Shown here: positions 6,855-29,718 of the stretch, piece by piece
Numbering within the stretch: the stretch's first letter is position 1
Layout: every line of letters starts with the position of its first letter
UHGV virus genome: UHGV-0716684
Strand: one strand, 5' to 3'
DNA length: 44,840 nucleotides
Source of the DNA: a virus
Notes under the pieces: generated by a model
What the model was told of the DNA's origin: nothing
The model's input: the letters and a program-made list of their open reading frames with translations, nothing else
The model's database searches: none
Program-made: the position numbers and the translations under genes

Positions 6855-6883
6855 TTGCACACCCCAACATAATAGGTTACTAT
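6855..6883 (+). promoter_or_regulatory. conserved phage promoter TTGCAC-N17-TACTAT with AATAG-N4-CTATT operator-like palindrome
   Basis: TTGCACaccccaacataataggtTACTATtcac; near-identical copies at 20383-20411 and 29690-29718 (minus strand). Confidence 0.5.
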
Positions 6884-6917
6884 TCACTTATCGAAACGAG
6901 ACATAAGGAATTTAGAA

Positions 6918-7136
6918 ATGAACAAAGCGACCGCAAGCGTAGTTTCCGCAATCAAAGAAGTTTACGGCATCGATATCTCAGAGCGCGTAATTATCGGGAA
7001 CAAGCGCAACTTCTTTACGTTCGACACCGACGGAATGGATGAAAATGATTTTGTTAACGTACAACGTTTCGCTAACGGTAAAGGACTTCGTAACGAGCCA
7101 GCGGGTTACAAGAAATTTGCTATCTACTTTAAATAA
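6918..7136 (+). CDS. hypothetical protein
   Basis: 72 aa ORF; AGGAA upstream. Confidence 0.5.
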   Translation: MNKATASVVSAIKEVYGIDISERVIIGNKRNFFTFDTDGMDENDFVNVQRFANGKGLRNEPAGYKKFAIYFK

Positions 7137-7145
7137 GACAGAGGA

Positions 7146-7340
7146 GTGATGGTTATGTTTAAGAAGGGTCAGTTGGTTAAAACAAAACGCGGCGGACAGT
7201 ACGTAATAGTTACCCAGAATGAGGATGAATATAGTACCGCTGTAGACGTATGGGGTCTTGTACGAAAGAAACATGGTTACGCTTTCAGAGATAATTTAAC
7301 ACTCATCGGCAACAATTTTAAATTCAAAGGGGCGAAGTGA
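7146..7340 (+). CDS. hypothetical protein
   Basis: 64 aa ORF; GGAG upstream. Confidence 0.5.
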   Translation: MMVMFKKGQLVKTKRGGQYVIVTQNEDEYSTAVDVWGLVRKKHGYAFRDNLTLIGNNFKFKGAK

Positions 7341-7558
7341 TGATTAAGCTAGAGATTAAATCGAAAGAGACAAAACAAACCATAGCCAGTAAAGAATTCA
7401 ACAGTAAATCCGAAATCGGTCCCTGGCTAAAACAGTACGCACATTTGCGGACGGTTTACATCCTTCTGACGAAGGAAAGTGGTGTGGTCACTTTACTCGA
7501 ACCGGCATCGAATCATGATGCTCGTGCCGACGACTCTGAGGGAGGTTGCCGTGAATAA
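7337..7558 (+). CDS. hypothetical protein
   Basis: 73 aa ORF overlapping neighbour stop. Confidence 0.45.
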   Translation: MMIKLEIKSKETKQTIASKEFNSKSEIGPWLKQYAHLRTVYILLTKESGVVTLLEPASNHDARADDSEGGCRE

Positions 7559-7600
7559 GTTTGTTTTAATCATCAGCGCCGTTTATGTGGTGCACGCGTT

Positions 7601-7807
7601 GTGGAGGTTGGTATGAGTCCGTATAACGAATTCCGCTTACGCCGTCTGATTGGCGGTCTGCGCGCCGCCGAGTTTGGTGTTGAATGCTGGGAAAAGGCGA
7701 AGTACACCCCGTTGAAGTCGTGGCATTTGGCTCATGCTAAGGAGGTAGCACAGTACCGTGAGTACAAGTTAAACAGTTTTCTTAAGCACCACGGGGTTGA
7801 GTTATGA
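7601..7807 (+). CDS. hypothetical protein
   Basis: 68 aa ORF; start may be the internal ATG (MSPYNEF). Confidence 0.45.
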   Translation: MEVGMSPYNEFRLRRLIGGLRAAEFGVECWEKAKYTPLKSWHLAHAKEVAQYREYKLNSFLKHHGVEL

Positions 7808-7947
7808 GAGAAGCATTCGAACGGTGGGCCATCGTCGAGGGTCTGCCGGTTAACAAGGGTTCAAAGAAAGAGTACCTGAACGTTAAGACACGTCTCGCGT
7901 GGCGGGCGTGGAAAGCTGGTGTTCAAACTGCGATGAATACGAGGTGA
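7804..7947 (+). CDS. small hypothetical protein (47 aa)
   Basis: Hand-translated MREAFERWAIVEGLPVNKG...; ATGA overlap with upstream gene. Confidence 0.35.
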   Translation: MREAFERWAIVEGLPVNKGSKKEYLNVKTRLAWRAWKAGVQTAMNTR

Positions 7948-7950
7948 GAT

Positions 7951-8151
7951 ATGGGTGAGTGGATTAAGTGTAGTGAGATGCTGCCGGGCAACGGTAGTAC
8001 AGATAAAGAATTCCTGGTGTATGAAACGTTAAATAACGCAGTTCAACACGATTATTACATCGTTCCTGATGACGGGAGAAAGCCTTTCTGGAATCACTAC
8101 GATAAGTACGTGACTCACTGGATGCCGTTACCTGAGCCGCCGGAAGTGTGA
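7951..8151 (+). CDS. DUF551-like small protein
   Basis: 66 aa; N-terminal MGEWIKCSEMLP resembles the DUF551 pattern (M.EWI....LP). Confidence 0.45.
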   Translation: MGEWIKCSEMLPGNGSTDKEFLVYETLNNAVQHDYYIVPDDGRKPFWNHYDKYVTHWMPLPEPPEV

Positions 8152-8285
8152 TGTTCAATAGTTTGGGATTTTACTGAGTGACTTACGCTGCTACACAGCA
8201 GCGTACAACTTTAACTTAGTGTCGTCAAAAGGCGACACTTTCACCAAACGCAACAATCGAAGCGACTATTGCAGGAGACGCAACA

Positions 8286-8456
8286 ATGAAACTGAATGAC
8301 ATCGTAACCTGGACCGGTAGAAACGGAGAAAAGCGATTCGGGCTTATTGTTGCGTCAGACGGCAACAAGTACCGTGTTATGCGCTGGTGCCAGTGGGCCA
8401 GACGCCCGAGGTACTACTGGATTCGTGGCGAACGATTATCTTTAAAACACCAATAA
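8286..8456 (+). CDS. small hypothetical protein (56 aa)
   Basis: Hand-translated MKLNDIVTWTGRNGEKRFG...; AGGAG upstream. Confidence 0.4.
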   Translation: MKLNDIVTWTGRNGEKRFGLIVASDGNKYRVMRWCQWARRPRYYWIRGERLSLKHQ

Positions 8457-8463
8457 AATTTAC

Positions 8464-8492
8464 TTGCACACTAAGATAGAATAGGCTACTAT
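8464..8492 (+). promoter_or_regulatory. promoter TTGCAC-N17-TACTAT with GAATAG-N4-CTATT operator-like palindrome
   Basis: TTGCACactaagatagaataggcTACTATtcat upstream of gene at 8525. Confidence 0.5.
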
Positions 8493-8524
8493 TCATTTAC
8501 ACAGACGAGACAGAGGAAAACGAA

Positions 8525-8710
8525 ATGTTAGAAGTTAAAGTTACAAAAAGAGACAGTGAACTGACTAAAGGCATCTTCAAAGTAGGAACCGTTATAGACC
8601 TGGATTTAGATGACATGGTTGTGTACCACGGTGGGATTGAGTGGAACGTGGCGCGGACCGACAACGGCTTCAAGTTACCAGGAAGTGAGACTCACTTTGC
8701 AGCAGTTTGA
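8525..8710 (+). CDS. hypothetical protein
   Basis: 61 aa ORF; GAGGAAAA upstream. Confidence 0.5.
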   Translation: MLEVKVTKRDSELTKGIFKVGTVIDLDLDDMVVYHGGIEWNVARTDNGFKLPGSETHFAAV

Positions 8711-9170
8711 AATATGGTTCCGGAGCCGGTTTGGGTTCACCCCGGCCCGGAAAGACAATGGCTACGCTGAACCAGAGGTTCAGCGGATGTGGGTACGGTG
8801 GAGTATCGACCGTAGTATCGTGGGTCGCGGTATCTATACTGACGAGGAAAACGCTATAATCGACGCTTACATCGGCCTGGAGCACAACCCGTACAAGCAA
8901 CAGTGCGAAGACCTGGCGCATGGGGTGCTGTCACTTAAAAACCAGTTACGTGATGCGTCGGCGCAGATTAAGGATTTGCATCTGGCGCTGGTTAAGGCCA
9001 CCGGTGACGTTGAGGCGTACAAACTTATCCGGGAACAGGAGCAATCCGGTTGCCGTAAGGGAGATACTCAGGAATGTGAACATGATTGGAGGGTAGTGCA
9101 GTATTCCGCCGGGGTAGAGACGAATAAGTGCCGCCTTTGCGGAGAAGAAAAAGAGGTTCGCTACAAATGA
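8697..9170 (+). CDS. hypothetical protein with C-terminal Cys-rich zinc-finger-like motif
   Basis: Frame open from 8610; start uncertain (TTG at 8697 or ATG at 8787); C-terminal C..H..C..C. Confidence 0.45.
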   Translation: MQQFEIWFRSRFGFTPARKDNGYAEPEVQRMWVRWSIDRSIVGRGIYTDEENAIIDAYIGLEHNPYKQQCEDLAHGVLSLKNQLRDASAQIKDLHLALVKATGDVEAYKLIREQEQSGCRKGDTQECEHDWRVVQYSAGVETNKCRLCGEEKEVRYK

Positions 9171-9370
9171 CCAGCATCCTCTTTATCTGGGTGTTATCTG
9201 CGGGTCAGATGCACCTGGCGGCAACAGAAACGTTTTATTCTATGGAGGCGTGCCAGTCAGCGGCACGCGCCGCAGAGAACGCGCACTTCTTGTTTCAGGG
9301 CGACAAGCCTAACGATTCAGAGGTACGCGCTATCTGCTCACCTAAGCGACTTGGTAAACAGGAGAAGTGA
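9167..9370 (+). CDS. small predicted secreted protein
   Basis: 67 aa from ATGA-overlapped ATG; hydrophobic signal-peptide-like N-terminus MTSILFIWVLSAGQMHLAA. Confidence 0.45.
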   Translation: MTSILFIWVLSAGQMHLAATETFYSMEACQSAARAAENAHFLFQGDKPNDSEVRAICSPKRLGKQEK

Positions 9371-9372
9371 TT

Positions 9373-9636
9373 ATGGTACAGAGATATTTATTACAAGGCG
9401 GTTTAATAGGGCCGCACGACGATGGTGACTGGGTTGGTTACGAAGACTACGCGGAACTTGAGCGTAAGTTCAATGAACTCAGGACATGGCGTACGCAGAT
9501 GCTCAATGCCGCTTTCGACTTTTTAGCGTGGGCAGAAAAAGCGGAAGCCGAGTTACAGAAATACAAAGACCAGTTCCCTGATTACGTCGAGTGCGCGAAC
9601 TGTGGGTCAGTTACACATGCGGAAGGGGTGGAGTGA
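9373..9636 (+). CDS. hypothetical protein, paralog 1 (W/Y-VGYEDYAELE motif)
   Basis: ATG preceded by gtgattATGGT context shared with the next gene. Confidence 0.5.
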   Translation: MVQRYLLQGGLIGPHDDGDWVGYEDYAELERKFNELRTWRTQMLNAAFDFLAWAEKAEAELQKYKDQFPDYVECANCGSVTHAEGVE

Positions 9637-9638
9637 TT

Positions 9639-9869
9639 ATGGTTATTCGTAAAGGCTTTTATGAAGATGGTAATTTCGATAGTAAAGTAAATGGGGAGTA
9701 CGTAAGCTACGAAGACTACGCGAAACTCGAAGCCAAACTTCTGGAAATAAAAGCAGCAGCCAGTTGTCTTGTGCGAGAAGCGAGTAAGGTGTATAGCGAT
9801 TATAGTGACGTTATAGCGCCTGAGTTTGTAGACCAGCAAACCATATACGAACTAGGTATTCTGCTATGA
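9639..9869 (+). CDS. hypothetical protein, paralog 2 (YVSYEDYAKLE motif)
   Basis: ATG at 9639 with GGAAGGGG upstream; shares motif and start context with previous gene. Confidence 0.5.
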   Translation: MVIRKGFYEDGNFDSKVNGEYVSYEDYAKLEAKLLEIKAAASCLVREASKVYSDYSDVIAPEFVDQQTIYELGILL

Positions 9870-10159
9870 GCCTCGCAACTGACATCCTGAAACGAAGCGG
9901 CCTTGCGCCGCTGTCGCCGAGAGCTAAAACACAGATATACAAGCGTCGGGGTAACGCGCTGTACCCAGAGATTCAGGCCAGGCGCAAAGCTGTCCGCGCC
10001 TGTGGATTCCAGAACGGGAAGGCCGTGAATCTCGGTGAGTTCAGGACAAAGGAACGCGCTGCAATCTCTAATCGGTTATTTAATTACTGGAAATCGCTGG
10101 GATACGATGATATCCCGACGAAACCACAGAGACGACAATACATCTGGAGACATAAATAA
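9866..10159 (+). CDS. basic hypothetical protein
   Basis: 97 aa ORF. Confidence 0.5.
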   Translation: MSLATDILKRSGLAPLSPRAKTQIYKRRGNALYPEIQARRKAVRACGFQNGKAVNLGEFRTKERAAISNRLFNYWKSLGYDDIPTKPQRRQYIWRHK

Positions 10160-10234
10160 ACCGCTATTAGGATAATTCCTACCCGTGGTATCCTCCAGTT
10201 ACTGCATACTTAATATGCACCTGGAGGATTCATC

Positions 10235-10543
10235 TTGGATAAATTTACTGAAACAGTGACGGGGTGGCTTCTCGCTGCCGCACTAGCCGGAGGGGTAATC
10301 GGCCTACGGCAACATAAGTCCGTTATTTCTGGCCCTATTGATGGCTTCTGCTTTATCGCTACCGGCTTCACCTGCGCCGTATTTGGTGCGCCTCTCGCGG
10401 CCCAATGGTTTGGTATTACCGGCGAACGCGAGATAGCTGGCCTGGGCTTCATTATCGCTATTCTCTGGATGCCTATCTATTCCCGCCTCTCCGGTATCGT
10501 CGCCGGAGAATACATCGCACGTCGAGGAGACCCGGATGAATGA
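10235..10543 (+). CDS. putative holin (three hydrophobic segments)
   Basis: 102 aa membrane protein immediately upstream of lysozyme; TTG start 6 nt after GGAGGA. Confidence 0.55.
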   Translation: MDKFTETVTGWLLAAALAGGVIGLRQHKSVISGPIDGFCFIATGFTCAVFGAPLAAQWFGITGEREIAGLGFIIAILWMPIYSRLSGIVAGEYIARRGDPDE

Positions 10544-10808
10544 GTTATTCTGGTTCGGCGGTATGCTGGCAATCGGTGGCACATCGCTGTTTAATGTATA
10601 CCACCCCAGTGTTGACGATGGGTTATTTGGTCGGGTGCTCTACATCCTGACCGCTATCGTTTGCGCTGCCGGATGCATCCACCTGTTACAGGGCAGCATG
10701 TCGCCAACGCTGCCTGGGACATTAATCACATTAGTTGCGCTGCGCCAGATTCGTCAGGCGTGGCTGTCATACGGAGGACATAAGCGTGTCTCGAAACATT
10801 TCAGATAA
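10536..10808 (+). CDS. putative holin/antiholin-like membrane protein (two hydrophobic segments)
   Basis: 90 aa; overlaps holin stop and lysozyme start. Confidence 0.5.
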   Translation: MNELFWFGGMLAIGGTSLFNVYHPSVDDGLFGRVLYILTAIVCAAGCIHLLQGSMSPTLPGTLITLVALRQIRQAWLSYGGHKRVSKHFR

Positions 10809-11271
10809 TGGGTTGCATTTTACCGCTGCATTTGAGGGATTCCGCGGAACTGCGTATCGCGCTACACCGAATGAGAAGTACCTTACAATAGGCTACGGAA
10901 GCTATGGCCCTCATGTTAAGGCTGGGCGGACCATCACTCCAGGGCAAGGCCTCCTGTTACTGAATCGTGATATGGCTAAGGCCGTAGCTGCGGTTGACGC
11001 AGCAGCGCACCATTCACTGACGCAGGCGCAGTTTGATGCTGTTTGCGACCTGGTCTATAACGCGGGCGCTGGCGTGATTGCTGCTACTACGGGCACGGGT
11101 AAGGCGCTGCGTTCTGGTGATATCACGACGCTGCGGGCTAAGCTGGCGCTGTTCATCAACCAGAATGGTAAACCGTTACTTGGTCTGCGTCGCCGTACTG
11201 CGGGTCGTCTGGCGTTGTTCGACGGTAAACAGTGGCAGGAGGCGGAGGCTATCGGGAGGGCTGTTAAATGA
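10786..11271 (+). CDS. endolysin, lysozyme (glycoside hydrolase family 24-like)
   Basis: GTG start 8 nt after GGAGG; motifs AAFEGFRGTAY and TIGYG typical of phage lysozymes. Confidence 0.8.
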   Translation: MSRNISDNGLHFTAAFEGFRGTAYRATPNEKYLTIGYGSYGPHVKAGRTITPGQGLLLLNRDMAKAVAAVDAAAHHSLTQAQFDAVCDLVYNAGAGVIAATTGTGKALRSGDITTLRAKLALFINQNGKPLLGLRRRTAGRLALFDGKQWQEAEAIGRAVK

Positions 11272-11397
11272 TGGACGAATACGAAGGCGTTTAGTAAACT
11301 TACATCACGCTGCTTGTGCTTGCATACTAAGCCCTGGTAAACCTGAAGCAGCAGCCCAGGCGGTGGAGACTGCGTAGGGTTCAGGGGCTTATGCCCG

Positions 11398-11428
11398 AAA
11401 CCCGGACCGCGAATCCGGGTTTTATTTT
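11398..11428 (+). terminator. rho-independent terminator
   Basis: cccgga-ccgcgaa-tccggg followed by ttttatttt. Confidence 0.6.
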
Positions 11429-11501
11429 ACCAATTGACACCTAAGACTAATCAGACGATACTTAAATCACCTCCTGTTCCATCCCTCTGCTCTCCAGTTT
11501 T

Positions 11502-11534
11502 ATCCCGGCCCTGACCCAGCCGGGATTTTTTTTA
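11502..11534 (+). terminator. rho-independent terminator (second, tandem)
   Basis: atcccggc...gccgggat followed by tttttttt. Confidence 0.6.
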
Positions 11535-11555
11535 TCTGTTTTCTGTAATGACTAG

Positions 11556-11584
11556 TTGACTATTATCCTCGACCCTATTATATT
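11556..11584 (+). promoter_or_regulatory. sigma70-like promoter TTGACT-N17-TATATT
   Basis: Located after the tandem terminators and before the small-gene block at 11619. Confidence 0.45.
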
Positions 11585-11618
11585 TACTTCATCGACAACG
11601 AGAACGGAGTAGAGAGAA

Positions 11619-11816
11619 ATGGGCAACGTATCGACGATAGAAATAACCGAAGAACTCGAAGTTAAATGTATCGCATCAGTTATAGGGAATGGTTCGGTGG
11701 AAAAACTACAGATGAGGGCTGCTGCGGGCTACATACGCAGGGCTAATAGCGCGCAGACTGATGTTTTACGTAAACGTTACCTCGTGAAAGCGTTAGAAAT
11801 ACTGGAGAATAACTAA
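11619..11816 (+). CDS. hypothetical protein
   Basis: 65 aa ORF; GGAG upstream. Confidence 0.5.
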   Translation: MGNVSTIEITEELEVKCIASVIGNGSVEKLQMRAAAGYIRRANSAQTDVLRKRYLVKALEILENN

Positions 11817-11965
11817 TGAAAATTACAGATATCGAAGCATTCAAAGACGCACAACTGATGGCACGCATCGCCGTTAGCAACCTGAGCAACAGCATCCCAG
11901 CGGCTGCATTCTGGTTCGCCGCGATGCAGACACTGAAAGCAGCTTATGCAGGAGAGAAGAAATGA
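11816..11965 (+). CDS. small hypothetical protein (49 aa, ends AGEKK)
   Basis: Hand-translated MKITDIEAFKDAQ...; start/stop overlaps both neighbours. Confidence 0.4.
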   Translation: MKITDIEAFKDAQLMARIAVSNLSNSIPAAAFWFAAMQTLKAAYAGEKK

Positions 11966-12885: not shown

Positions 12886-13056
12886 ATGTTCAGTGACATC
12901 AACGCAGCAATCGAAGAGGCAATCTGGCGTCGCTACAACGGCGAGCAACAACGGCACTTCTGCCTGGTGCAACGTGGAAACATGATTGCTGTAGTGCAGG
13001 ACCGCGATAACAAATATCCGAATGCGATGTGGACAACGAGGAATTTCTTAGGATGA
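12886..13056 (+). CDS. small hypothetical protein (56 aa)
   Basis: Hand-translated MFSDINAAIEEAIWRRY... Confidence 0.4.
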   Translation: MFSDINAAIEEAIWRRYNGEQQRHFCLVQRGNMIAVVQDRDNKYPNAMWTTRNFLG

Positions 13057-13289
13057 TTACCAGCATTCCTAACCTGATTAAAGAATTTGGCACGATGGCC
13101 GAGACGTGCCGACAAACCGGCATCAACGAAATGACGATTGCGAAGTACAGCAAAGACGTGGACTGCGAGCGCCACGTAATTTATAACAACCGTCTGATGA
13201 CGCACGTTAAAACAAGCCCGGTGTTATTCACGCGCCGGGGTATCACTAAAACTGAGCAACGTATCGCACGAGAGGAGAGCGGGGAATGA
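13053..13289 (+). CDS. small HTH-containing protein
   Basis: ATGA-coupled start MITSIPNLIKEFGTMAETCRQTGINEMTIAKYSK (HTH-like). Confidence 0.45.
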   Translation: MITSIPNLIKEFGTMAETCRQTGINEMTIAKYSKDVDCERHVIYNNRLMTHVKTSPVLFTRRGITKTEQRIAREESGE

Positions 13290-16770: not shown

Positions 16771-16799
16771 ATATTAAGGCCCCTATTGGGGCCTTAATC

Positions 16800-18212
16800 T
16801 CACTTATTCCATACCAATTTCTCTTGTCCGCTATCCCATATGCGGGATACACCTTCCGCAGCGTACCATTCCGACTGTGTAAGCCCCTCTGGCGCTTTGT
16901 TCCATTTTTGCCGTGATTCTGTTTTAGTCGCATTGTTTACGACGATGCGGAATCCACATCTCACAGAAGCCTTTTTAAACCCCGCTGATAGGTATGATTC
17001 TCCGGTAAATAAATCCCGGTCAGTGTAGGTAAAACCGTCGGTGATGCTATAACGGCGCACGGCATAGGCCCATAGCTTCGACAGCCCGCCTACCACCGAA
17101 CACGACGTAGCGTACCGCACAAGCTCCCATTCACCTTTTCTACACGTCAGCGTCATTACCGCAACAATCTTTTCTTCATAAACGAGGCTGATATACCTCG
17201 TCGAGTTACGGAATCCTTGAATGTGGTTCTCCTCCAGGAAACGCTCTGCACATATTTTGTTAATCTCTTTTACATGGCATTTGCGGGCGAAAACTCGCAA
17301 AGAAGAGACGCCGACGGAATGGCCGATTATTTTCTTTATTATTTCTTTTTTATGCAGCCATAGCTCATCCCTTATTGACAGGAGCCGGAACCCTCTTTCC
17401 TCAACGGCGACTCTTTTCTCCATGTGATACTTTCTCCCCTTCCCGGCAGCTTCACTGTGCCAGTACAGGCCGTTTATTTCTATCGCCAGATTATGTTGCG
17501 GTATTAAAATATCTATCTCTCTTGGGTGGATAAGACTTCTATCATTCCGATGATATTCCACCCCCATGCTATCGAGAAATTCACAGACTTCATCCTCCAC
17601 TTTACTACGCCCGAACGACGCGCACCGCGGGCACCCTCTACCCTGAAAAATGTTACCAAGCGTAGAGGCCCATTCATGGCCTTTTTGACACCTCAGTGTC
17701 GATGGCGCACGGCAGATATCCCCTGAATAAGACACCAGTTCAAAACCAGTGCCGCGTAACCTTTCCTCTATTTCTCCGATCTCGAGCCTTTTTCTGTTAG
17801 TGCTGCAATTCGGGCAATGACTTTTACCCCTTAAAATGTCGCTGCCGGTAGCGGACCAGACGAACCCGCATTTACATCTGAACGTTGATTTCCCACTTAC
17901 AGCACCTGCGTAATTAAGGCATTCAACCCCATTAGGCCACTCTGTTACTTTCGCCCGTTTTTCCGCAGCGTAGCATTGGGGGCAACCATGACCGTTTAGG
18001 ACGGTATTGGCCTTTGTCTCCCACACATGGCCACTACGGCAGCGGAATTTAGACTTAAGTTTAGAGTGGCCTGCATACTCAATTACTACTATACCCCGTG
18101 ACGCCAGTCTCAGGTTTACATCTTCTTCAGTTAAACGTCTGGACCCCATTAAAATACCCTCCGCTTCTTCTAGTATAAAGATTGTGTATATACATGTACC
18201 ACAGCAAGACAT
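16800..18212 (-). CDS. putative multi-domain homing-type endonuclease (zinc-ribbon repeats plus PD-(D/E)XK Vsr/DUF559-like nuclease motif)
   Basis: Repeated C..GH.W...G.GCP.C units; motif EIDILIPQHNLAIEINGLYWHSE; opposite strand inside the packaging/head module. Confidence 0.55.
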   Translation of the reverse strand: MSCCGTCIYTIFILEEAEGILMGSRRLTEEDVNLRLASRGIVVIEYAGHSKLKSKFRCRSGHVWETKANTVLNGHGCPQCYAAEKRAKVTEWPNGVECLNYAGAVSGKSTFRCKCGFVWSATGSDILRGKSHCPNCSTNRKRLEIGEIEERLRGTGFELVSYSGDICRAPSTLRCQKGHEWASTLGNIFQGRGCPRCASFGRSKVEDEVCEFLDSMGVEYHRNDRSLIHPREIDILIPQHNLAIEINGLYWHSEAAGKGRKYHMEKRVAVEERGFRLLSIRDELWLHKKEIIKKIIGHSVGVSSLRVFARKCHVKEINKICAERFLEENHIQGFRNSTRYISLVYEEKIVAVMTLTCRKGEWELVRYATSCSVVGGLSKLWAYAVRRYSITDGFTYTDRDLFTGESYLSAGFKKASVRCGFRIVVNNATKTESRQKWNKAPEGLTQSEWYAAEGVSRIWDSGQEKLVWNK

Positions 18213-18252
18213 CGCACCGCAATAAGAAAAAATTCCCTGAGATATTATTTTT

Positions 18253-19329
18253 ATGCGTTACACTGTCGATACTACAGGAGGGCTTATGAGCTTACTTACA
18301 TCTCTAATTAGCCACCAGATATGGCTGCAACGTACTGCATCCGGTGAGGTGAAAGACCTAGCACCGTTCATTCAGGAGATGCGGGACGAAATCAAACGGC
18401 AGGTGCTGTTATTCGGCGATGATGGCCGCAGCACCGCCCGGCTGAATAAACTGTTACGCGACCTTGAAGAAGCACTGGCTGGACTTACAGTTGACTGGCA
18501 AACAAAGCTGACAGAAGACCTTAAGGAACTGGCGGCATATGAGGCTGAGTGGAACGTAAAGACACTTACCACCAACGTTAACGCGGAATTTGTTACACCT
18601 ACCGCCGAGCAGGTGTGGGCCGCTGCCGAGTTTCAACCTCTGTCGCTAAGTGACAAGCCCGTTGACTTCACCAAGCTGATGTCAGGCTGGGGTGAAGCGG
18701 AGGTCGCGCGCCTTGTAACTGGCGTTAAGATGGGCTTTGTGCAAGGCCAAACCACACGGCAGATTGTTAAAGAAGTAGTTGGTAAAGGCGGCCTGGCTGA
18801 CGTATCAGAGAAACACGCTGCTACAGTAATCCGCACCGCGCTGTCCCACGTGTCCAACGAAGCCCGTAATGAGACGTACCGCCAGAACGACGACATTATC
18901 GAGAAATATGAGTGGGTGTCTACTCTTGATTCTAGGACCTCAGCCGTTTGCAAGGCCAGAGATGGGATGACGTGGGAAATCGGTAAAGGGCCGATGCCCC
19001 CCGCCCATCCGAACTGCCGGTCGTGCACGGCTCCGGTAATCAGTTCGGAGTTCGACTTCCTGGATAAAGGCGCAAAACGCGCGGCTAAGGGTGCGGACGG
19101 AGGTACTCAGGTAAGCGCAGACACCACTTACTACGAGTTCCTGAAACAACAACCGGCATGGTTTCAGGACCAGGCTCTAGGCCCGGTGCGGGGTAAGATT
19201 TTCCGTAACAGCGGTATATCGCCGGAAGAGTTTCGCGTAATATCTGTAGATGGTTTCGGGAATCCGCTCACGCTTAAGCAGATGGCGGAACTCGATAAAC
19301 GTGTTGCTGATTATCTGAAAGGGGAATAA
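18253..19329 (+). CDS. head morphogenesis protein (SPP1 gp7 / Mu F-like minor head protein)
   Basis: 358 aa; conserved PMPPAHPNCRSC region; position after portal. Confidence 0.75.
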   Translation: MRYTVDTTGGLMSLLTSLISHQIWLQRTASGEVKDLAPFIQEMRDEIKRQVLLFGDDGRSTARLNKLLRDLEEALAGLTVDWQTKLTEDLKELAAYEAEWNVKTLTTNVNAEFVTPTAEQVWAAAEFQPLSLSDKPVDFTKLMSGWGEAEVARLVTGVKMGFVQGQTTRQIVKEVVGKGGLADVSEKHAATVIRTALSHVSNEARNETYRQNDDIIEKYEWVSTLDSRTSAVCKARDGMTWEIGKGPMPPAHPNCRSCTAPVISSEFDFLDKGAKRAAKGADGGTQVSADTTYYEFLKQQPAWFQDQALGPVRGKIFRNSGISPEEFRVISVDGFGNPLTLKQMAELDKRVADYLKGE

Positions 19330-19793: not shown

Positions 19794-19820
19794 AAGGCCC
19801 CGAAAGGGGCCTTAATTTTA
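19794..19820. terminator. conserved terminator hairpin aaggccccgaaaggggcctt
   Basis: Perfect 8 bp stem, GAAA loop, T-rich flank; same hairpin at 27155 and 39396. Confidence 0.6.
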
Positions 19821-20357
19821 ATAAGCTAACCAAGAACCTCTTTCTGTGAACATCAATTTATTTCCTTTTAAGAGATTCAGAACCGCAGGGATAACTTGTA
19901 TGTTTTCTGCGACGTGCAGCCCTGAGACAGTTTTAGCCCGCAACGGCAGCATGTGGTCGATATGCCATAAGAAACCTGTTTCACCCGCTCGCAGTTGACA
20001 TAGCTCCTGCGCTTCTTCGAATACTAATAGGTCAAATTCATCATTCCTGATGTTTATACTCCTGGCTCTTTTTGCCGTTTTATACTTCAACCTTTGGGCT
20101 TTCCTGGCGGTTTTGTTTTTCTTACGGTACTCCGCATCAATTTCGGCTAATCGGTCTTTATTTTCTTGCCTCCATTTTGCGTTTTTAGCCGCCCAAGAAA
20201 CAGCGTTTCGTTCTCGGTACGATTTTTGTATCTCTTTAGTGCACTCATAGCACCCGGTGCGAACATGCCTTTTCGCAACATGCCCGCGTTTACACGGTTT
20301 GCCAGTGAAGTAATAATCATCCCCCGCGGCTATGGCTTCTGAACGCTTAGTGAGCAT
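19818..20357 (-). CDS. HNH-type endonuclease
   Basis: 179 aa; CKRGH..C.EC zinc-binding N-terminus and WHIDHMLPL...N HNH-like core. Confidence 0.6.
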   Translation of the reverse strand: MLTKRSEAIAAGDDYYFTGKPCKRGHVAKRHVRTGCYECTKEIQKSYRERNAVSWAAKNAKWRQENKDRLAEIDAEYRKKNKTARKAQRLKYKTAKRARSINIRNDEFDLLVFEEAQELCQLRAGETGFLWHIDHMLPLRAKTVSGLHVAENIQVIPAVLNLLKGNKLMFTERGSWLAY

Positions 20358-20382
20358 AAAACCCCCTGTTTAAGTTAACCGA

Positions 20383-20411
20383 ATAGTACCCTATTATATT
20401 GGTGTGTGCAA
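20383..20411 (-). promoter_or_regulatory. promoter TTGCAC-N17-TACTAT with GAATAG-N4-CTATT palindrome
   Basis: Reverse complement TTGCACacaccaatataatagggTACTATtc; upstream of the HNH gene. Confidence 0.5.
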
Positions 20412-20686
20412 ACTATTTGTTTACATATTCCAGTTATTCCACTCAATTGTAAATGTTGGAATAAACTATTCGAATAGTTGACTTTTCACTAAAAATATGA
20501 TAAGCTCCACCTGAGCTTGTGAAGTATGAACAAGCGACCGCGGCGCGGGCAGGTAACGGAGCCGGATGTTAAGTCCGAGTGTAGTTACGCTGACGCGTTC
20601 GGAAGGGCCGTACTCTATTGCTTGTGTAAAAAGTAACTGGTTTACTGAGATTACGCCGTTTCTATGTTTAAATGATAAGGACTAGC

Positions 20687-24200: not shown

Positions 24201-24202
24201 AA

Positions 24203-24817
24203 ATGGCGAAGACTAAAACAGAGATATTTACGCTAATCGGGTCCGAGCTACCTGACAACACGACCGGTCTTATTACCCCCGCCGCATTGCGCGAGGTAAT
24301 GACGCAGATGGCGGACTCGCCTATCTACGCCACTCCAGGCGTTAAAGAAGTTGAAGTTCTACGTGCTGCGTCTACCATAGCACAAGCACCAACCGCGGTA
24401 GATACAGCATTGCAGTTAACTTTTGGCTCCGCTCAGGGTAGCGCATCCGACCCAGTAACGATTAATGCCGCAGGGCTGGTTACGTTCAACACCCCCGGAA
24501 ACTACGCCGTTCGCATCAAGTTGCAGGCGGGGCGCACGGGTGCTAGCGGTACATCAATCTTGCTATCACGTATTTTAGTAAATGGCGCTCAGTACGGCTC
24601 GCCCGCCGCCACGAAACTAGTCAGCGCCGACGTAACGATTCCGATTGAATCCCGCGTTGTTATTAACCCGACAGCAGGCCAGACGTTTGCCGTTCAGATT
24701 ATGCGAGATAGCCCCGGAAGCAACTACGGCGGCGTATACCCGCAAGCGGCTACCGTGACCGCATGGGGCACAGCACCATCCGCGCTACTGGTTATCTCAA
24801 GACTGGAGGCCGCCTGA
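24203..24817 (+). CDS. hypothetical structural protein
   Basis: 204 aa ORF in head-tail joining block. Confidence 0.5.
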   Translation: MAKTKTEIFTLIGSELPDNTTGLITPAALREVMTQMADSPIYATPGVKEVEVLRAASTIAQAPTAVDTALQLTFGSAQGSASDPVTINAAGLVTFNTPGNYAVRIKLQAGRTGASGTSILLSRILVNGAQYGSPAATKLVSADVTIPIESRVVINPTAGQTFAVQIMRDSPGSNYGGVYPQAATVTAWGTAPSALLVISRLEAA

Positions 24818-25176
24818 TGAGCACCGCTTTCAGTAAGCGTATGCAAGGCGTGGGTACGCGCCTGCTAACCAAATTCGGCAGCACGGTGTCGCTGATTCGC
24901 GCTGGCTCGAAAGTGTGGGATGAAGCCCTCGGCGAGTACGTATGGTCTGACGATGAAGTGTTGCCGTTGAAGGCCGTTCCGGTTCCGGTAAACGCGGGAC
25001 TGGTAAATGGTACGACGATTCAGGCCGGCGACATGATTGTTAAAGCCGATTACAGTGTCGTACCGAAGATGGAAGACAAGGTTCAATTCGGCGGAGAGCA
25101 ATGGTCCGTCGTAACCATTGAGAAGAAGATGGTTAATGATGATGTCGTGGCCTACTTTATTCAGGTGAGAAAATGA
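24817..25176 (+). CDS. putative head closure / tail completion protein
   Basis: Start at ATG overlapping upstream stop (TGATG); call by synteny only. Confidence 0.45.
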   Translation: MSTAFSKRMQGVGTRLLTKFGSTVSLIRAGSKVWDEALGEYVWSDDEVLPLKAVPVPVNAGLVNGTTIQAGDMIVKADYSVVPKMEDKVQFGGEQWSVVTIEKKMVNDDVVAYFIQVRK

Positions 25177-25568
25177 GTTTCGCGCTCGATGTCTCTAAGT
25201 TCGTGGAAAAGGCGAAGAAGAACCCTGAGACGGTGATGCGCCAGGTGTCTATCAAGCTGTTTTCCGCTATTATAGAGGCGAGTCCGGTAGATACGGGTCG
25301 CTTTCGTATGAACTGGATGGCATCTGGCGGTACTCCTGCTTCCGGTATTACAGACGCTACGGATAAATCAGGAAACACGGCAACCGGAAACGCTACGAGT
25401 TTCGTACTGAAAGCCGCAGACTGGCACGAGTTCACGCTGACAAATAACCTGCCGTATGCACAACGGCTGGAGTATGGCTGGTCGCAACAGGCACCCGCCG
25501 GGGTGGTCAGGACTAACGTGTCCCGCTTCCAGCAACTCATTAACGAAGAAGCCAACAAGGTGAAATGA
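25173..25568 (+). CDS. HK97 gp10-like neck/tail-component protein
   Basis: 131 aa; motif SPVDTGRFRMNWM characteristic of the HK97 gp10 family. Confidence 0.55.
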   Translation: MSFALDVSKFVEKAKKNPETVMRQVSIKLFSAIIEASPVDTGRFRMNWMASGGTPASGITDATDKSGNTATGNATSFVLKAADWHEFTLTNNLPYAQRLEYGWSQQAPAGVVRTNVSRFQQLINEEANKVK

Positions 25569-25981
25569 TGGGCTACTTTGAGGACTTAACAAAAGCGTTT
25601 GATGTGCCGCTGGTAGCCTTCGGAACCGCCAACGGCATCAAAGTCGCGCTTGAAAATATCGGCGCACCGACGTCAACCGATACACCATATCTGGCAAGTT
25701 ACATGTTGCTGGCGGATACGGAACAGGCGGATTTGTTCTTCACGGAACAACGCGCTGGCGTCTATCAGGTAGATATTAACTACGCATCGGTGAAAGGTAG
25801 CGCGCCAATCAATAAAATGGCAGACTTACTTAACACGGCGTTTAAAGCAGGTAAGTCATTTTCACGTAACGACATCTGCGCCGAGGTTCAATCGGTTAGC
25901 CTGGGGCCGCTGATTGTAGAAAACGGATGGGCCAAACGACCATTGTCAATTAACTTTATTGCATTCACCAAGAGGCTGTGA
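25565..25981 (+). CDS. putative tail terminator / tail component
   Basis: 138 aa ORF immediately upstream of major tail protein gene. Confidence 0.45.
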   Translation: MMGYFEDLTKAFDVPLVAFGTANGIKVALENIGAPTSTDTPYLASYMLLADTEQADLFFTEQRAGVYQVDINYASVKGSAPINKMADLLNTAFKAGKSFSRNDICAEVQSVSLGPLIVENGWAKRPLSINFIAFTKRL

Positions 25982-27150
25982 ATATGGCTACAACTCCTTT
26001 TAAGGGCGCGAATACTGCGCAATTCTATGTGGCAGAAACTACCCCGGGCGTAACACCGGCTAACCCGGTATGGTCGCCGTTGCGCAACACGGGCGGCGTT
26101 CCTGCCATTACCCGCGACACGCTGACCTCCAACGAACTTGACGGCAGCCGAGAAACCACATCCATCCGCACCGGTAACAAGCAGGTTAGCGGAGAATACG
26201 CTATTGAGCTTAGCTCTAAAAGTCAGGACGACTGGTTAGCCGGGGCTTTAGGCTCTACGTGGCAATCCGGCGTTTCCCTGTCAGGACTATCGATTACCGT
26301 CGCACCCGCGGGCAAGACGTTCACACGCGCTACCGGCAGTTTTATCACTGACGGAGTTGGGGTAGGCGACCTGATTGCGTTTACCGATTTAACAGGCGAT
26401 AACGCAAAACCATTTATTGTTACTGCAGTAACGGCTACGGTTGTTACTGGTGCGGGCATCCAACACACCCTGACCACCGAGACAAAAACTAGTAAGGCTA
26501 AAACTGGCGACACGTTGGAAACCGGTAACGCGTGTAAGACGTTCTCTATCCTTACCTGGTACAAAGGCCAGTGCGGCGGTACTGACGCGTACACGTTAAC
26601 CAAAGGCGTGGAAGTTTCTGGTTTTACCATCGAACAGGCTGTTAACGCGATGGTAACTGGCAGCTTCCCGTTCATCGGTCGCAGTCAGGAGATTCTCACC
26701 ACGCAGCCGTCTGGTTCTGATTTCTCCTCTGTTACGTTTGGTGACGAGCCATTCTCCTCGGTCGATGTTTCTGTGTTCGACGGTTCTACGCCGTTGCGTT
26801 GCGACAGCCTGACCATCGCCAACGACAACAGCGCGTCGGCGCAGTTCGAACTCGGCAACACTAACGTAGCGTTTGTGGAACGTAGCCGCGCGGCTAACAC
26901 CTTCTCCATCTCCGGCAAGCTGTACGACATGGCTATGATTCAGAAGTTTATCAACGAACAGCAGGTGGAGATTAACTCTATTCTGGCGGGGGTAAACGGG
27001 GCTATGTCTTTTAGTTTGAAACGCGCAGAACTCACGGCGGTTACACCTGAGATTGGTGGGCCTGAGTCAATTACCCAAAGTATAGAAGGGCAGTCCACAG
27101 GCAACCAGTATCAGTCGTCTATCGTAATTCAACGTATTAGTTACGCATAA
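25978..27150 (+). CDS. putative major tail protein
   Basis: 390 aa; last gene of the plus-strand head-tail operon, followed by conserved terminator. Confidence 0.6.
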   Translation: MNMATTPFKGANTAQFYVAETTPGVTPANPVWSPLRNTGGVPAITRDTLTSNELDGSRETTSIRTGNKQVSGEYAIELSSKSQDDWLAGALGSTWQSGVSLSGLSITVAPAGKTFTRATGSFITDGVGVGDLIAFTDLTGDNAKPFIVTAVTATVVTGAGIQHTLTTETKTSKAKTGDTLETGNACKTFSILTWYKGQCGGTDAYTLTKGVEVSGFTIEQAVNAMVTGSFPFIGRSQEILTTQPSGSDFSSVTFGDEPFSSVDVSVFDGSTPLRCDSLTIANDNSASAQFELGNTNVAFVERSRAANTFSISGKLYDMAMIQKFINEQQVEINSILAGVNGAMSFSLKRAELTAVTPEIGGPESITQSIEGQSTGNQYQSSIVIQRISYA

Positions 27151-27154
27151 AACT

Positions 27155-27179
27155 AAGGCCCCGAAAGGGGCCTTTTCTT
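27155..27179. terminator. conserved bidirectional terminator hairpin aaggccccgaaaggggcctt
   Basis: T-rich tract on both strands; convergent gene ends. Confidence 0.65.
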
Positions 27180-27396
27180 ACTCACTTTTGAACGGCATTT
27201 CGTAGAAGTTAGTTAACTGGCCTCGGTCCCTTCGTTCTGTCATTTCTTTAGAGGCCTCTTCCTTACTACTAACGGCATAAATATCAACCCACTCGTCCCA
27301 TTCTTCGTCGTATACTCGGATTACATATATTGTTTTCATAATATTTTCACTCATCAATATTGCTTCGGTATTCCCGTAACTTCTCCAGACTTTCAA
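27178..27396 (-). CDS. hypothetical protein (accessory island)
   Basis: 72 aa ORF on opposite strand within tail module. Confidence 0.45.
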   Translation of the reverse strand: MKVWRSYGNTEAILMSENIMKTIYVIRVYDEEWDEWVDIYAVSSKEEASKEMTERRDRGQLTNFYEMPFKSE

Positions 27397-27577
27397 TTGC
27401 TTCTGCTAAGTCGGTTCCGGTGTCCTTGTGTCCGCGCAAGCCCATGCACAATAACTTCTTTAACGCATGCTGTAGCGCCGGGTCACGGATATCGAAAGCA
27501 CGGAGCACATCATAAACGTCTACTGTCATGGTGCTGCCGTGAGTGTTTGTCATTGTGCGGTTGTATTTTGAAGTCAT
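27347..27577 (-). CDS. hypothetical protein (accessory island)
   Basis: 76 aa ORF. Confidence 0.45.
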   Translation of the reverse strand: MTSKYNRTMTNTHGSTMTVDVYDVLRAFDIRDPALQHALKKLLCMGLRGHKDTGTDLAEAIESLEKLREYRSNIDE

Positions 27578-27586
27578 CTCTACACC

Positions 27587-28087
27587 CTATTTATAACCGT
27601 TGTTGAATGTTGTCAGTCCATGATTTATGTGAAACCTATTAGCCACAGACATGTAAATTCTTTCAGCGAAAGCGTCCTCTATTCTGTCAAATGTTTTACT
27701 AATCTGCTTACCGTTGACAACGGCATAAGCTCTCCACTTAGTTTTTCCTTTCCGCGCCACACCCGTAACTCCAGAGGTATTATCTTTGCGCCTTTTCACG
27801 TTAACCATGTTGTCCCTTCTAGATTTGCATGACAGGTTTTCAATTCTGTCGTCACAGGTATCATGGTTAGTATGGTCTATGACAAATCCTTTTGGAATCT
27901 TACCTGAGAACATCTCATACACCACCCTCGACCTTTTAAACTTACGGTTACCAAACATGACATACCAATAGCCGTTTTTACACAAACTCCCGGCCACATC
28001 ACCTATATTCACATCGTTACGGCGACATGATTTGACTTTCCAGTATAGGACGCCATTTTTGTAGCTAAAAACCTCACTCCAATCCAT
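27587..28087 (-). CDS. HNH homing endonuclease with AP2 DNA-binding domain
   Basis: HNH_3 motif VIDHTNHDTCDDRIENLSCKSRRDN; AP2-like SGVTGVARKGKTKWRAYAVVNGKQISKTFDRIEDA. Confidence 0.75.
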   Translation of the reverse strand: MDWSEVFSYKNGVLYWKVKSCRRNDVNIGDVAGSLCKNGYWYVMFGNRKFKRSRVVYEMFSGKIPKGFVIDHTNHDTCDDRIENLSCKSRRDNMVNVKRRKDNTSGVTGVARKGKTKWRAYAVVNGKQISKTFDRIEDAFAERIYMSVANRFHINHGLTTFNNGYK

Positions 28088-28102
28088 ACTTTCACCTATA
28101 TT

Positions 28103-29257
28103 TTAGTATGTCGATTTTGGGTTTATGTCTCGCAGCATTTCGACAGGTATACTTATGCGGGACACCTCCCCGTAACGTTTGTGGTATGTAATCACATTTG
28201 CGCTTCTACCTGAATAATAGCCGCCCTTACTAGAATACTCATCTTTAGCCGCTAATGTCTGGTGTTGCTCAACAATTAGCAGATTAGTCTCTTTAACCGC
28301 CCTGTGATGGAGGTGCCCCGTATGGACATATGTGAACTTACACCGCCCGTACATCTCCCGGTACTTACCGATTATAGCCTGCTCTACCTTAGCAAAGTTA
28401 GAACAATGCCCGTGATGTGCTGAAATCATACAATCCCCGAACTTGTACGCATAATACGGTGACACCTCCCGGTTAACCTCGACGCGAGGCTCATTTGTGT
28501 ATACCTCGTAGAACATCTCCCGGAGCCACAGAGAAGAACTAAGGTCGTGGTTACCTTCACAGATAAGAAGTTTAACCTTCTTGTGTTTTCGCAAGCACAG
28601 TGAGACAGCCAGCTTGATAACCTTAATGGCCGTGCGTATCATTTTAAACAGGCGACTATCCGCTGAAAGAATATGACCGCTCATAGGGGTCATTGCCTTC
28701 ATGCCGTCGTAGTGCATTTGGTCCCCTAAGAAGTTAATGATACATTCACCACTCTGTGGACTCATACAAACCGCACTGTTGAACCAGTCAACCGCGAGAG
28801 ATTCCGCGATTGTGGTGTCGTAATCATCCCCGCCTTCTTCTTGACACGCCAACATCCCTATGTGATGGTCTGTTATTGTGTAAAGATTTAATAAGTCGTC
28901 ATCTGTCCCATTTTTGGCCAAAGTGACTGGCTTATACTTGGGTAAATCTTTTTTCATCTCGTCCACAACGGCTTTCATTAACTCGACCTGACGTTCCGCA
29001 TCGGTGTCGGTCTTAACCCATTGCAGTTTAGTGTTGCCTAACTCATCAACCAGAGACGATGTACCCTTAATCTTGTAGCCGTCCGGCACAAGGTGGCTAA
29101 CGTCACGCCCGTGGCCTACGCCTTTCTTCGCTAGTTTCGCTTTACGGATACGAATAACGCGGTCTGAGATGCCGTATTTACGAGCAATGTCGATATTCTT
29201 CATCCCAGCGTTCAATTCTTCCTGTAACTGTTCGTCGGTTATTTTCTTCTGGGCCAT
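28103..29257 (-). CDS. HTH-fused calcineurin-like metallophosphoesterase
   Basis: N-terminal HTH (IDIARKYGISDRVI); phosphoesterase motifs TDHH, GDQMHYDG, GNHD, HTGHLHH. Confidence 0.65.
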   Translation of the reverse strand: MAQKKITDEQLQEELNAGMKNIDIARKYGISDRVIRIRKAKLAKKGVGHGRDVSHLVPDGYKIKGTSSLVDELGNTKLQWVKTDTDAERQVELMKAVVDEMKKDLPKYKPVTLAKNGTDDDLLNLYTITDHHIGMLACQEEGGDDYDTTIAESLAVDWFNSAVCMSPQSGECIINFLGDQMHYDGMKAMTPMSGHILSADSRLFKMIRTAIKVIKLAVSLCLRKHKKVKLLICEGNHDLSSSLWLREMFYEVYTNEPRVEVNREVSPYYAYKFGDCMISAHHGHCSNFAKVEQAIIGKYREMYGRCKFTYVHTGHLHHRAVKETNLLIVEQHQTLAAKDEYSSKGGYYSGRSANVITYHKRYGEVSRISIPVEMLRDINPKSTY

Positions 29258-29322
29258 GCCTATTTCCTCGTGTTTAGGATTTGTCCTATTTAACCACAGT
29301 GCATTCCTTTAAATAAAGGCAA

Positions 29323-29649
29323 CTATTTACTTTCTGCGCCTATTGACCATCCGGTTGTAACCATTTGCAAACGAGTGGCTAACAGTAGGCTGCTGAAAGT
29401 GGGGCTGTTAACATCTACAGACTCAACAACAAGGGATGTCATCAATTCAAGACCAAGGCCAGACCCGCCAGCGCGCACGGCAGCATTACATTCGCGAATA
29501 GCAGCGGTTTTAAACGCACTAACGGCAGACGGAGGGGCTGAATCAAGCACCCCGGAAGTTACTAAAGGGGTTTCACTATATACTTGCTCACACTGGGACC
29601 CTACCGCGCAAAAAGAAATAAGACCCATGGCTATGATTAATTTACGCAT
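29323..29649 (-). CDS. small secreted/periplasmic protein
   Basis: 108 aa; N-terminal signal peptide MRKLIIAMGLISFCAVG; first gene downstream of promoter at 29690-29718. Confidence 0.5.
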   Translation of the reverse strand: MRKLIIAMGLISFCAVGSQCEQVYSETPLVTSGVLDSAPPSAVSAFKTAAIRECNAAVRAGGSGLGLELMTSLVVESVDVNSPTFSSLLLATRLQMVTTGWSIGAESK

Positions 29650-29689
29650 TTTAATTCCTTATTTAAGTTAATAACGTTGGTGTAAGTGA

Positions 29690-29718
29690 ATAGTACCCTA
29701 TTATATTGGGGTGTGCAA
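29690..29718 (-). promoter_or_regulatory. promoter TTGCAC-N17-TACTAT with GAATAG-N4-CTATT palindrome
   Basis: Reverse complement TTGCACaccccaatataatagggTACTATtcac; essentially identical to 6855-6883. Confidence 0.5.

Follow-up and report, generated by a model that had tools for sequence, protein, structure and literature searches.

The virus genome UHGV-0716684 was analysed as a single stretch of 44,840 nucleotides (referred to below as the window) with respect to a family of promoters distributed along it. Seven such promoters are found, and each carries one copy of the 14-bp palindrome AATAG-N4-CTATT on or against its -10 hexamer; the palindrome most likely serves as the operator of a single small dimeric regulator, encoded by the phage itself, through which the seven would be controlled jointly. 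A 6-kb stretch of the window is 96% identical to Escherichia phage JSSK01 and has matches in 421 phage records, nearly all of them Escherichia Kagunavirus or Salmonella Jerseyvirus, both of the subfamily Guernseyvirinae. Judged by this similarity, the window phage is a virulent E. coli phage of the genus Kagunavirus. The annotated relatives (JSSK01, AG11, SETP13 and EC3-1) are virulent siphoviruses of ~41-45 kb; no CI-type repressor with a cleavable C-terminal domain, integrase or other lysogeny gene is annotated in these four, nor a lambdoid immunity region (CI/Cro/lysogeny switch). Published descriptions of Kagunavirus phages (fBC-Eco01, Golestan) report no lysogeny genes either, and a virulent phage is indicated both by the JSSK01 annotation and by PMC9825357.

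The promoters fall into class 1 (TTGCAC-N17-TACTAT) and class 2 (TTGACA/TTGACG-N17-TATAGT). Together with an eighth, imperfect site and the genes concerned, they are arranged as follows.

128-156 (minus strand): class-2 promoter; the spacer is taken up by palindrome AATAGTTAGCTATT (133-146), whose last base is the first T of the -10; the target, also on the minus strand, is a DUF2815/Gp2.5-like single-stranded-DNA-binding homologue of JSSK01_50 that runs off the window start.
3224-3252 (minus strand): class-2 promoter; perfect palindrome O1 (3229-3242); heads the leftward operon from 3195 to 161.
6855-6884 (plus strand): class-1 promoter; palindrome AATAGGTTACTATT (6871-6884) over the -10; heads small early open reading frames (ORFs) from 6918.
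8464-8493 (plus strand): class-1 promoter; palindrome AATAGGCTACTATT (8480-8493); upstream of the gene at 8525-8710.
11551-11564 (plus strand): imperfect site ACTAGTTGACTATT with one mismatch, overlapping the -35 of TTGACT-N17-TATATT (11556-11584).
20383-20411 (minus strand): class-1 promoter; palindrome AATAGGGTACTATT (20382-20395); upstream of the endonuclease VII-like gene at 19818-20357.
29689-29718 (minus strand): class-1 promoter; palindrome AATAGGGTACTATT (29689-29702); heads the accessory island of the tail module.
29323-29649, 28103-29257 and 27587-28087 (minus strand): genes of that island, headed by the 29690 promoter; the first is of unknown function and the last encodes an HNH protein.
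41678-41706 (minus strand): class-2 promoter TTGACG-N17-TATAGT; palindrome AATAGCTAACTATT (41683-41696); heads the operon from 41644 to 39420 (helicase and others).

TTGCAC-N17-TACTAT has four exact matches in the window (6855-6883 and 8464-8492 on the plus strand, 20383-20411 and 29690-29718 on the minus strand), against 0.20 expected by shuffles, and none of 100 shuffles reaches four. Any two of the copies at 6855, 20383 and 29690 are identical at all but 2-5 of 36 bases, and in the 8464 copy both hexamers are exact and the spacer is different; the original prediction, which had described three near-identical copies and a looser one, is borne out in this respect. A second class, TTGACA-N17-TATAGT (0.15 expected), had been reported at three places. 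The copies at 128-156 and 3224-3252 (both minus strand) are indeed exact; the third is TTGACG-N17-TATAGT, a one-mismatch form, and is located at 41678-41706 (minus strand), not at 41677-41705.

The two classes had been regarded as separate families, but they are not independent, since both carry AATAG-N4-CTATT. This palindrome was missed in the original prediction. It has seven matches in the window, one per promoter, and none elsewhere, whereas 0.04 are expected both by shuffles and by a calculation from base composition. When the promoters are aligned on the palindrome in their own orientation, invariance is confined to the ten bases of the arms and a single T five positions downstream of the palindrome; the -35 hexamers of the two classes are then out of register. 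If the first base of the -35 is numbered 1, class 2 has the palindrome at bases 11-24, its last T doubling as the first T of TATAGT, and class 1 has it at bases 17-30, with TACTAT contained in it. The corresponding bases in the tail-island promoter of AG11 (Jerseyvirus) are 14-27. In every case the palindrome overlaps or abuts the -10. As its register relative to the -35 varies, it is not read by RNA polymerase at a fixed position and represents a separate element. The motif, its statistics and its register are direct observations, as are the conservation and the indels described below.

Promoters were considered as sigma-70-like if they combined a TTGACA-like -35 with a TATAAT-like -10 (A at position 2, T at position 6) at a spacing of 17 +/- 1 nt. 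All seven have such hexamers and spacing, and all are located upstream of a gene or operon and oriented towards it, 25-45 nt before a ribosome-binding site and ATG on the same strand. Class 2 matches the sigma-70 hexamers at 10-11 of 12 positions; in class 1, seven of 12 match, with TTG, A2 and T6 intact. Several orthologous sites are labelled as RpoD promoters in the GenBank record of Salmonella phage AG11. Hexamers, 17-nt spacers, orientation and the AG11 labels thus give good support to the promoter calls made earlier, which stay predictions from sequence. Transcription-start mapping for any member of Guernseyvirinae was not found in the literature searched, where the sole RNA sequencing (RNA-seq) study is at gene level only.

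Alignment against related phages, which had been proposed as a check, revealed the palindrome at orthologous promoters and homology breakpoints beside some of them. It is kept at orthologous promoters in ~40 Kagunavirus and 14 Jerseyvirus genomes, with variable centre and flanks; the arms are perfect at the orthologous sites of 38 Kagunavirus loci (37 IMG/VR contigs, L004-L040, and JSSK01). Perfect copies number six in JSSK01, eight in EC3-1, six in SETP13 and five in AG11, the last with two further one-mismatch copies. The 35 distinct Kagunavirus sequences of O1 agree in all ten arm bases and vary in the central ones. Within Kagunavirus the palindrome keeps a constant distance from the -10, and its distance from the -35 varies by one base. 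When 2.9 million viral contigs were scanned for AATAGNNNNCTATTATAGT, multi-copy clusters were found in Guernseyvirinae contigs only, and thus no independent lineage with clusters of the palindrome; the 56 unrelated loci have a single copy each, except three with two copies.

Two one-mismatch sites supplement the perfect ones. The first, O2 (AATATGGTACTATT, 3273-3286), lies 44 bp from O1 (3229-3242). The second, at 11551, directly follows a T run and precedes small ORFs upstream of the terminase genes; a near-palindrome is present at the equivalent position in Jerseyvirus and Cornellvirus as well. Several Kagunaviruses possess an extra perfect palindrome, CAATAGGTTACTATTTGG (L007 at 14663, L012 at 13351, L016 at 14662, and others), with GGTGTAACAGG repeats before it, a hairpin after it and no obvious -35 at the usual spacing. 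Its window equivalent (8157-8170) has decayed to two mismatches (AATAGTTTGGGATT).

Three small helix-turn-helix proteins are encoded in the window: one of the HTH_3 family (71 amino acids), one of the HTH_17 family (60 amino acids) and a NinH-like protein. The features that matter for the choice of a binder are the following.

3317-3532 (plus strand): HTH_3 (XRE) protein, 71 amino acids (Pfam HTH_3, E = 2.3e-12); the favoured candidate binder.
3241-3268 (plus strand): candidate promoter of the Cro-like HTH_3 gene, TTCACA-N16-TAAAAT; the whole element, including O2, spans 3241-3286.
6254-6436 (minus strand): HTH_17 (excisionase/MerR-like) protein, 60 amino acids; the rival candidate binder.

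The closest solved structure to the HTH_3 protein is phage 434 Cro, which is also 71 amino acids long (E = 2e-6, residues 6-68 aligned). 434 Cro is a dimer that binds 14-bp dyad operators. In the window, the Cro-like gene is divergent from the 3224 promoter, which stands back-to-back with the candidate promoter of this gene, and both O1 and O2 fall within the 121-bp gap upstream of 3317. O1 covers the spacer of the 3224 promoter and is centred ~40 bp upstream of the transcription start predicted for the candidate promoter of the Cro-like gene. O2 is located at about +1 of the candidate promoter and is conserved in 35 distinct Kagunavirus sequences. Such a placement of O1 and O2 makes autoregulation possible. 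A Cro/CI-type circuit is recognised by a small phage HTH_3 protein, a dyad of 14-18 bp over core promoter elements and operators at the regulator's own divergent promoter, and all three are found here.

Short perfect dyads placed over the -10 of many promoters classically mark operators bound by dimeric proteins, and repression through competition with RNA polymerase is to be expected from such a position. The seven elements are accordingly best read as sigma-70 promoters, each containing an operator for a dimeric regulator of the phage, most likely the Cro-like protein. We hold this reading with moderate confidence; that a protein binds, which protein it is and whether it represses are deduced from sequence. 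According to it, a symmetric dimer would recognise the 14-bp operator AATAG-N4-CTATT and, the operator being on or against the -10, would compete with RNA polymerase once bound. A single repressor could thereby govern seven transcription units, namely the early ORFs read rightward, three leftward operons for replication/recombination, the gene of the endonuclease VII-like protein and the island in the tail module. The binder would be the 71-amino-acid 434-Cro-like protein, whose own gene could be autoregulated through O1 and O2. The identity of the 6855, 20383 and 29690 copies over the whole spacer would result from duplication and recombination of the promoter-operator together with its cargo genes. 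The dedicated recognition factor of the original prediction would thus be right in spirit, given the dyad-symmetric 14-mer over the -10, though it would not be a sigma factor, a phage RNA polymerase or another protein that sets promoter specificity.

Comparison of the genera bears on the identity of the binder. Among Kagunavirus Cro-like variants (77-100% identical) all substitutions lie outside the helix-turn-helix, and GVSQGAINQLALGVTQDVR is invariant. Between the Kagunavirus and Jerseyvirus proteins the helix has diverged (SQSLITHL against SQGAINQL), whereas the HTH_17 protein is 82% identical between them. The base flanking the arm also differs, being T in all 46 Jerseyvirus half-sites and T or G (52% and 41%) in Kagunavirus; this difference parallels the diverged Cro-like protein and not the conserved HTH_17. 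The Cornellvirus-lineage phages VSiA (L003) and SE1 (L044) lack both the exact palindrome and the HTH_17 gene, and retain the Cro-like protein. Looser dyads of the form AWTAS-N4-STAWT occur in them, for the most part where the sequence resembles a promoter and sometimes in the same register (for example, ATTAGTGTCGTAAT and AATACTCAGCTAAT), and their half-sites lean to ATTAG over AATAG. This loose dyad may be a diverged operator. Large-database searches for distant homologues of the Cro-like and HTH_17 proteins in other phage types gave close relatives only, and the loci L041 and L176 are unrelated contexts.

Several observations weigh against repression by the Cro-like protein. In its Jerseyvirus orthologue four of the seven recognition-helix positions differ and the ten arm bases are identical; the Cornellvirus helix resembles that of Jerseyvirus, though the sites differ. 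As the helix changes without the arms, there is no clean covariation of protein and operator. The loose dyad of VSiA and SE1 (4-5 copies versus 0.5 expected, with a maximum of three in 200 shuffles) was measured against mononucleotide shuffles, and the AT-rich -10 may inflate its enrichment. The sign of regulation, repression, is read from the operator position alone. The strict phylogenetic profile favours the HTH_17 protein, whose presence or absence matches that of the perfect palindrome. Finally, in the only RNA-seq study of a Kagunavirus, that of phage K1B4, a coarse one, several genes (045, 053, 054 and 057) are called late (PMC12645636), and by gene order these belong to minus-strand operons headed by palindrome promoters.

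The same promoter-operator architecture with the 60-amino-acid HTH_17 protein (6254-6436) as the binder is an unlikely alternative, though the best placed of those considered. This protein could be made immediately, from a palindrome-free promoter, and then repress or otherwise time the seven promoters; a hand-read candidate promoter, TTGCTT-N17-TATACT (~6472-6500, minus strand), is indeed without palindrome. HTH_17 homologues are found in Kagunavirus and Jerseyvirus only (443 phage records), and the two genera that share the close HTH_17 orthologue are those with the exact palindrome; VSiA and SE1 have neither. In K1B4, gene 008, annotated with a "helix-turn-helix domain", is among four early genes (PMC12645636), and gene order suggests that it is the HTH_17 gene; the identity of gene 004 is likewise taken from gene order. 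An early helix-turn-helix gene combined with late minus-strand operons could equally fit an early-made repressor that delays those operons. Against this, the EC3-1 HTH_17 protein (69.6% identity) has the helix VSTMTLNRW instead of VTRQTINNW and yet coexists with the same palindrome in eight copies, the looser dyads persist at Cornellvirus promoters without HTH_17, and the profile is founded on two independent lineages only. For characterised members of the HTH_17 superfamily (excisionases, BldC, PrtN) the usual targets are direct repeats or asymmetric sites, and not short perfect dyads, which also speaks against this binder.

The profiling compared all window proteins with four palindrome-bearing and two palindrome-free genomes, and besides the helix-turn-helix proteins it singled out a 63-amino-acid protein (41453-41644). 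The latter was dropped as a binder: its predicted structure is an SH3/EF-P-domain-I-like beta-barrel with no significant match to a DNA-binding protein, and its neighbourhood is 92-97% conserved. Encoded on the minus strand by the first gene after the 41678 promoter, it belongs to PHROG 4879 (function unknown), is 94-95% identical in Jerseyvirus and absent from Cornellvirus, and has a predicted fold with pLDDT 88.8; its EC3-1 homologue is annotated as "transcriptional regulator". The NinH-like protein (13053-13289) occurs throughout the three genera, with the higher similarity in the one without the exact motif, and there is no support for it as a binder.

A quite improbable alternative does without a dedicated regulator: copies of one promoter unit would have travelled through the genome in company with mobile or accessory genes, and recombination would have made them uniform. 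The near-identity of the 6855, 20383 and 29690 copies through the spacer is in line with it, and so are an indel and several breakpoints. A 612-bp segment (19814-20425, minus strand) holding the endonuclease VII-like gene (19818-20357, PHROG 1035), its class-1 promoter and the palindrome is missing from JSSK01, where 14 bp replace it; many Jerseyviruses of Salmonella match a 961-bp query containing this segment at ~93% identity. EC3-1 has the promoter and palindrome at this locus too, with another cargo gene, and its homology to the window stops at the palindrome. The first cargo gene of the tail island (29290-29675) is non-homologous in JSSK01 and EC3-1, and homology resumes ~15-30 bp after the -10. 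The 8464 promoter forms an 88-bp conserved island between diverged genes. Homology breakpoints between relatives are located at most ~30 bp from the promoters 20383, 29690 and 8464. Copying fails, however, to account for the rest: classes 1 and 2 have only the ten arm bases in common, in different registers; these ten bases are invariant over two genera and about 50 genomes, with the four central bases and the flanks varying; and simple copying leaves dyad symmetry unexplained, accounting for the extra identity of class 1 only. Gain or loss with cargo, or the marking of a breakpoint, was observed at three of the seven copies only. The original suggestion of promoter cassettes spreading with mobile genes therefore holds for these promoters and not for the other copies, which occupy fixed backbone positions across two genera. 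A promoter-operator unit used as a cargo joint explains the additional spacer identity of three class-1 copies, but neither the palindrome nor the copies fixed in the backbone.

The minus-strand modules have a second recurrent element, the GC hairpin AGGCCCC-N4-GGGGCCT, with four copies (16777-16794, 19795-19812, 27156-27173 and 39397-39414) against 0.02 expected. Each is located exactly at the junction between a plus-strand module and the end of a minus-strand module. These copies are probably bidirectional terminators, bracketing the minus-strand cargo islands opposite the promoter-operator units. Three homing-type endonuclease genes lie on the minus strand in the structural module: an HNH/homing endonuclease (16800-18212, 470 amino acids), the endonuclease VII-like gene (19818-20357, 179 amino acids) and an HNH endonuclease (27587-28087, 166 amino acids). 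The first has no counterpart in JSSK01, AG11, SETP13, EC3-1, VSiA or SE1, and its candidate promoter, TCGACA-N16-TAATAT (18242-18269), is without palindrome. The middle gene of the tail island (28103-29257, minus strand) is homologous to phosphoesterase/repair-exonuclease genes of JSSK01 and AG11.

A wider proposal, possible but doubtful, is that a Cro-only switch, one 434-Cro-like protein on 7-8 dispersed operators within sigma-70 promoters, runs the whole early and middle programme of this strictly virulent family, and that the same unit, combined with the conserved bidirectional terminator hairpin, is its standard cargo joint, where homing endonucleases and other accessory genes enter and are swapped. 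If so, cargo exchanged between E. coli and Salmonella phages would be wired into the phage circuit automatically.

Still less probable than copying is a palindrome bound by a host transcription factor of E. coli or Salmonella and exploited by the phage. The exact palindrome occurs in phages of two host genera whose candidate regulators have diverged, which could be explained by a common host protein. The TrpR operator, ACTAG-TTAA-CTAGT, resembles the palindrome in its 5-4-5 geometry, and the imperfect 11551 site, ACTAGTTGACTATT, can be set beside it. Nevertheless, no host factor is known to us that has AATAG-N4-CTATT as its consensus, the Cornellviruses also infect Salmonella and have lost the exact motif, and the multi-copy clusters of the viral contig scan are confined to Guernseyvirinae. 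TrpR boxes, ArgR boxes, cruciform formation and MerR-type activation were rejected by inspection on spacer length, arm length and sequence; MerR-type activated promoters need a spacer of 19-20 bp containing the dyad, and the spacers are 17 nt here and 17-18 nt in the relatives.

Recognition by a phage-encoded RNA polymerase has been proposed in the fBC-Eco01 paper, where PHIRE found seven copies with the consensus tgAATAGTa-ccTATTat-T that were attributed to such an enzyme, and the paper on VB_EcoS-Golestan calls its seven PHIRE sites phage-specific promoters. This reading has almost no probability left and is effectively refuted by gene content, since no RNA polymerase gene is annotated in JSSK01, AG11, SETP13, VSiA, SE1 or EC3-1 and the five window ORFs of at least 650 amino acids match the JSSK01 tail protein, helicase-primase, DNA polymerase, tape measure and tail spike (the last by position); good sigma-70 hexamers at 17-nt spacing and a palindromic core unlike the promoters of single-subunit RNA polymerases point the same way.

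Some features adjoining the promoters should be described separately. The first gene after the 8464 promoter (8525-8710, plus strand) has a hit with E = 4.6e-26 to "Phage antiviral trigger protein Gp54" (Pfam PF25180); its product is homologous to a small phage protein that has been named as trigger of a bacterial defence system. The 41678 promoter is contained in the 3' end of the ORF before it (41675-41959, minus strand), a VRR-NUC/resolvase gene by homology to JSSK01 and AG11. The DUF2815/single-stranded-DNA-binding gene after the 128 promoter exits at the window start (1-75), and its C-terminal part is found at 44552-44840; the two parts together make up ~360 of the 627 nt of the JSSK01 gene, and therefore the window is probably a nearly complete, not closed, copy of the genome.

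Upstream of the 6855 promoter, the region 6534-6790 (plus strand) contains a strong palindrome-free promoter, TTGAAA-N18-TATAAT preceded by TG (11 of 12 matches), and after it a long hairpin at 6588-6625 and, at 6763-6782, an intrinsic terminator; a promoter is annotated at the equivalent place in AG11. The predicted transcript of ~210 nt (folding energy -72.4 kcal/mol, z = -4.6) has no Rfam match and overlaps both C-rich repeats (CCCTCCCCGA) and an ORF of 55 amino acids (6528-6695). Possible identities are a small RNA, a leader and a region associated with an origin. An Rfam scan of the whole window gave zero matches. The AACGAGA motif of 5' leaders shows no overall enrichment (seven copies versus 5.8 expected).

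With regard to published work, the fBC-Eco01 PHIRE promoters have the same motif and the same copy number, seven, as the promoters of the window; the Golestan sites, compared by count and not by sequence, are also seven. Neither paper mentions the dyad symmetry or the surrounding sigma-70 hexamers, no RNA polymerase is encoded by these phages, and no paper noting the dyad or tying the motif to a regulator was found in the literature searched. The published annotation thus needs correction: the seven fBC-Eco01 "phage promoters" are by their sequence host-type promoters with a predicted operator, and not promoters of a phage RNA polymerase, and the same is probably true of those of Golestan. With 7-8 operators and two named candidate regulators, they would form a compact, testable regulon in a phage group used in therapy and as a small synthetic-biology chassis. 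The promoter-operator units could be ready-made, co-regulated insertion points for cargo genes, and they suggest how the regulation of accessory genes and homing endonucleases comes to be shared with the phage programme.

Mobile promoter/stem-loop cassettes (PeSLs) are known from T4-type phages. As with these, conserved promoter units in the window bound variable cargo that includes homing-type endonucleases, homology breakpoints are adjacent to them, and a GC hairpin, AGGCCCC-N4-GGGGCCT, stands at the downstream end of each minus-strand island. Unlike PeSLs, the core of the window units is a regulator-type palindrome within the promoter, and most copies are fixed in the backbone across genera; only one copy, at 20383, is demonstrably part of an indel. 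The arrangement resembles 434 Cro/repressor in its 71-amino-acid HTH_3 protein and in a 14-bp dyad over core promoter elements, and it resembles the 434/lambdoid OR and OL in having two sites, one strong and one weak, between divergent promoters beside the regulator gene. It differs from 434 and the lambdoid phages in that the window phage is virulent, without CI partner, integrase or lysogeny module, and in that the sites are scattered over 7-8 promoters instead of two clustered tripartite operators; the half-site is AATAG, not the ACAA of 434, and binding by the Cro-like protein is a prediction here. The motif was already known as a repeat, the underlying principle, a Cro-like protein acting on promoter operators, is textbook, and a standard mechanism suffices. 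The closest known system is the 434/lambdoid Cro-operator arrangement.

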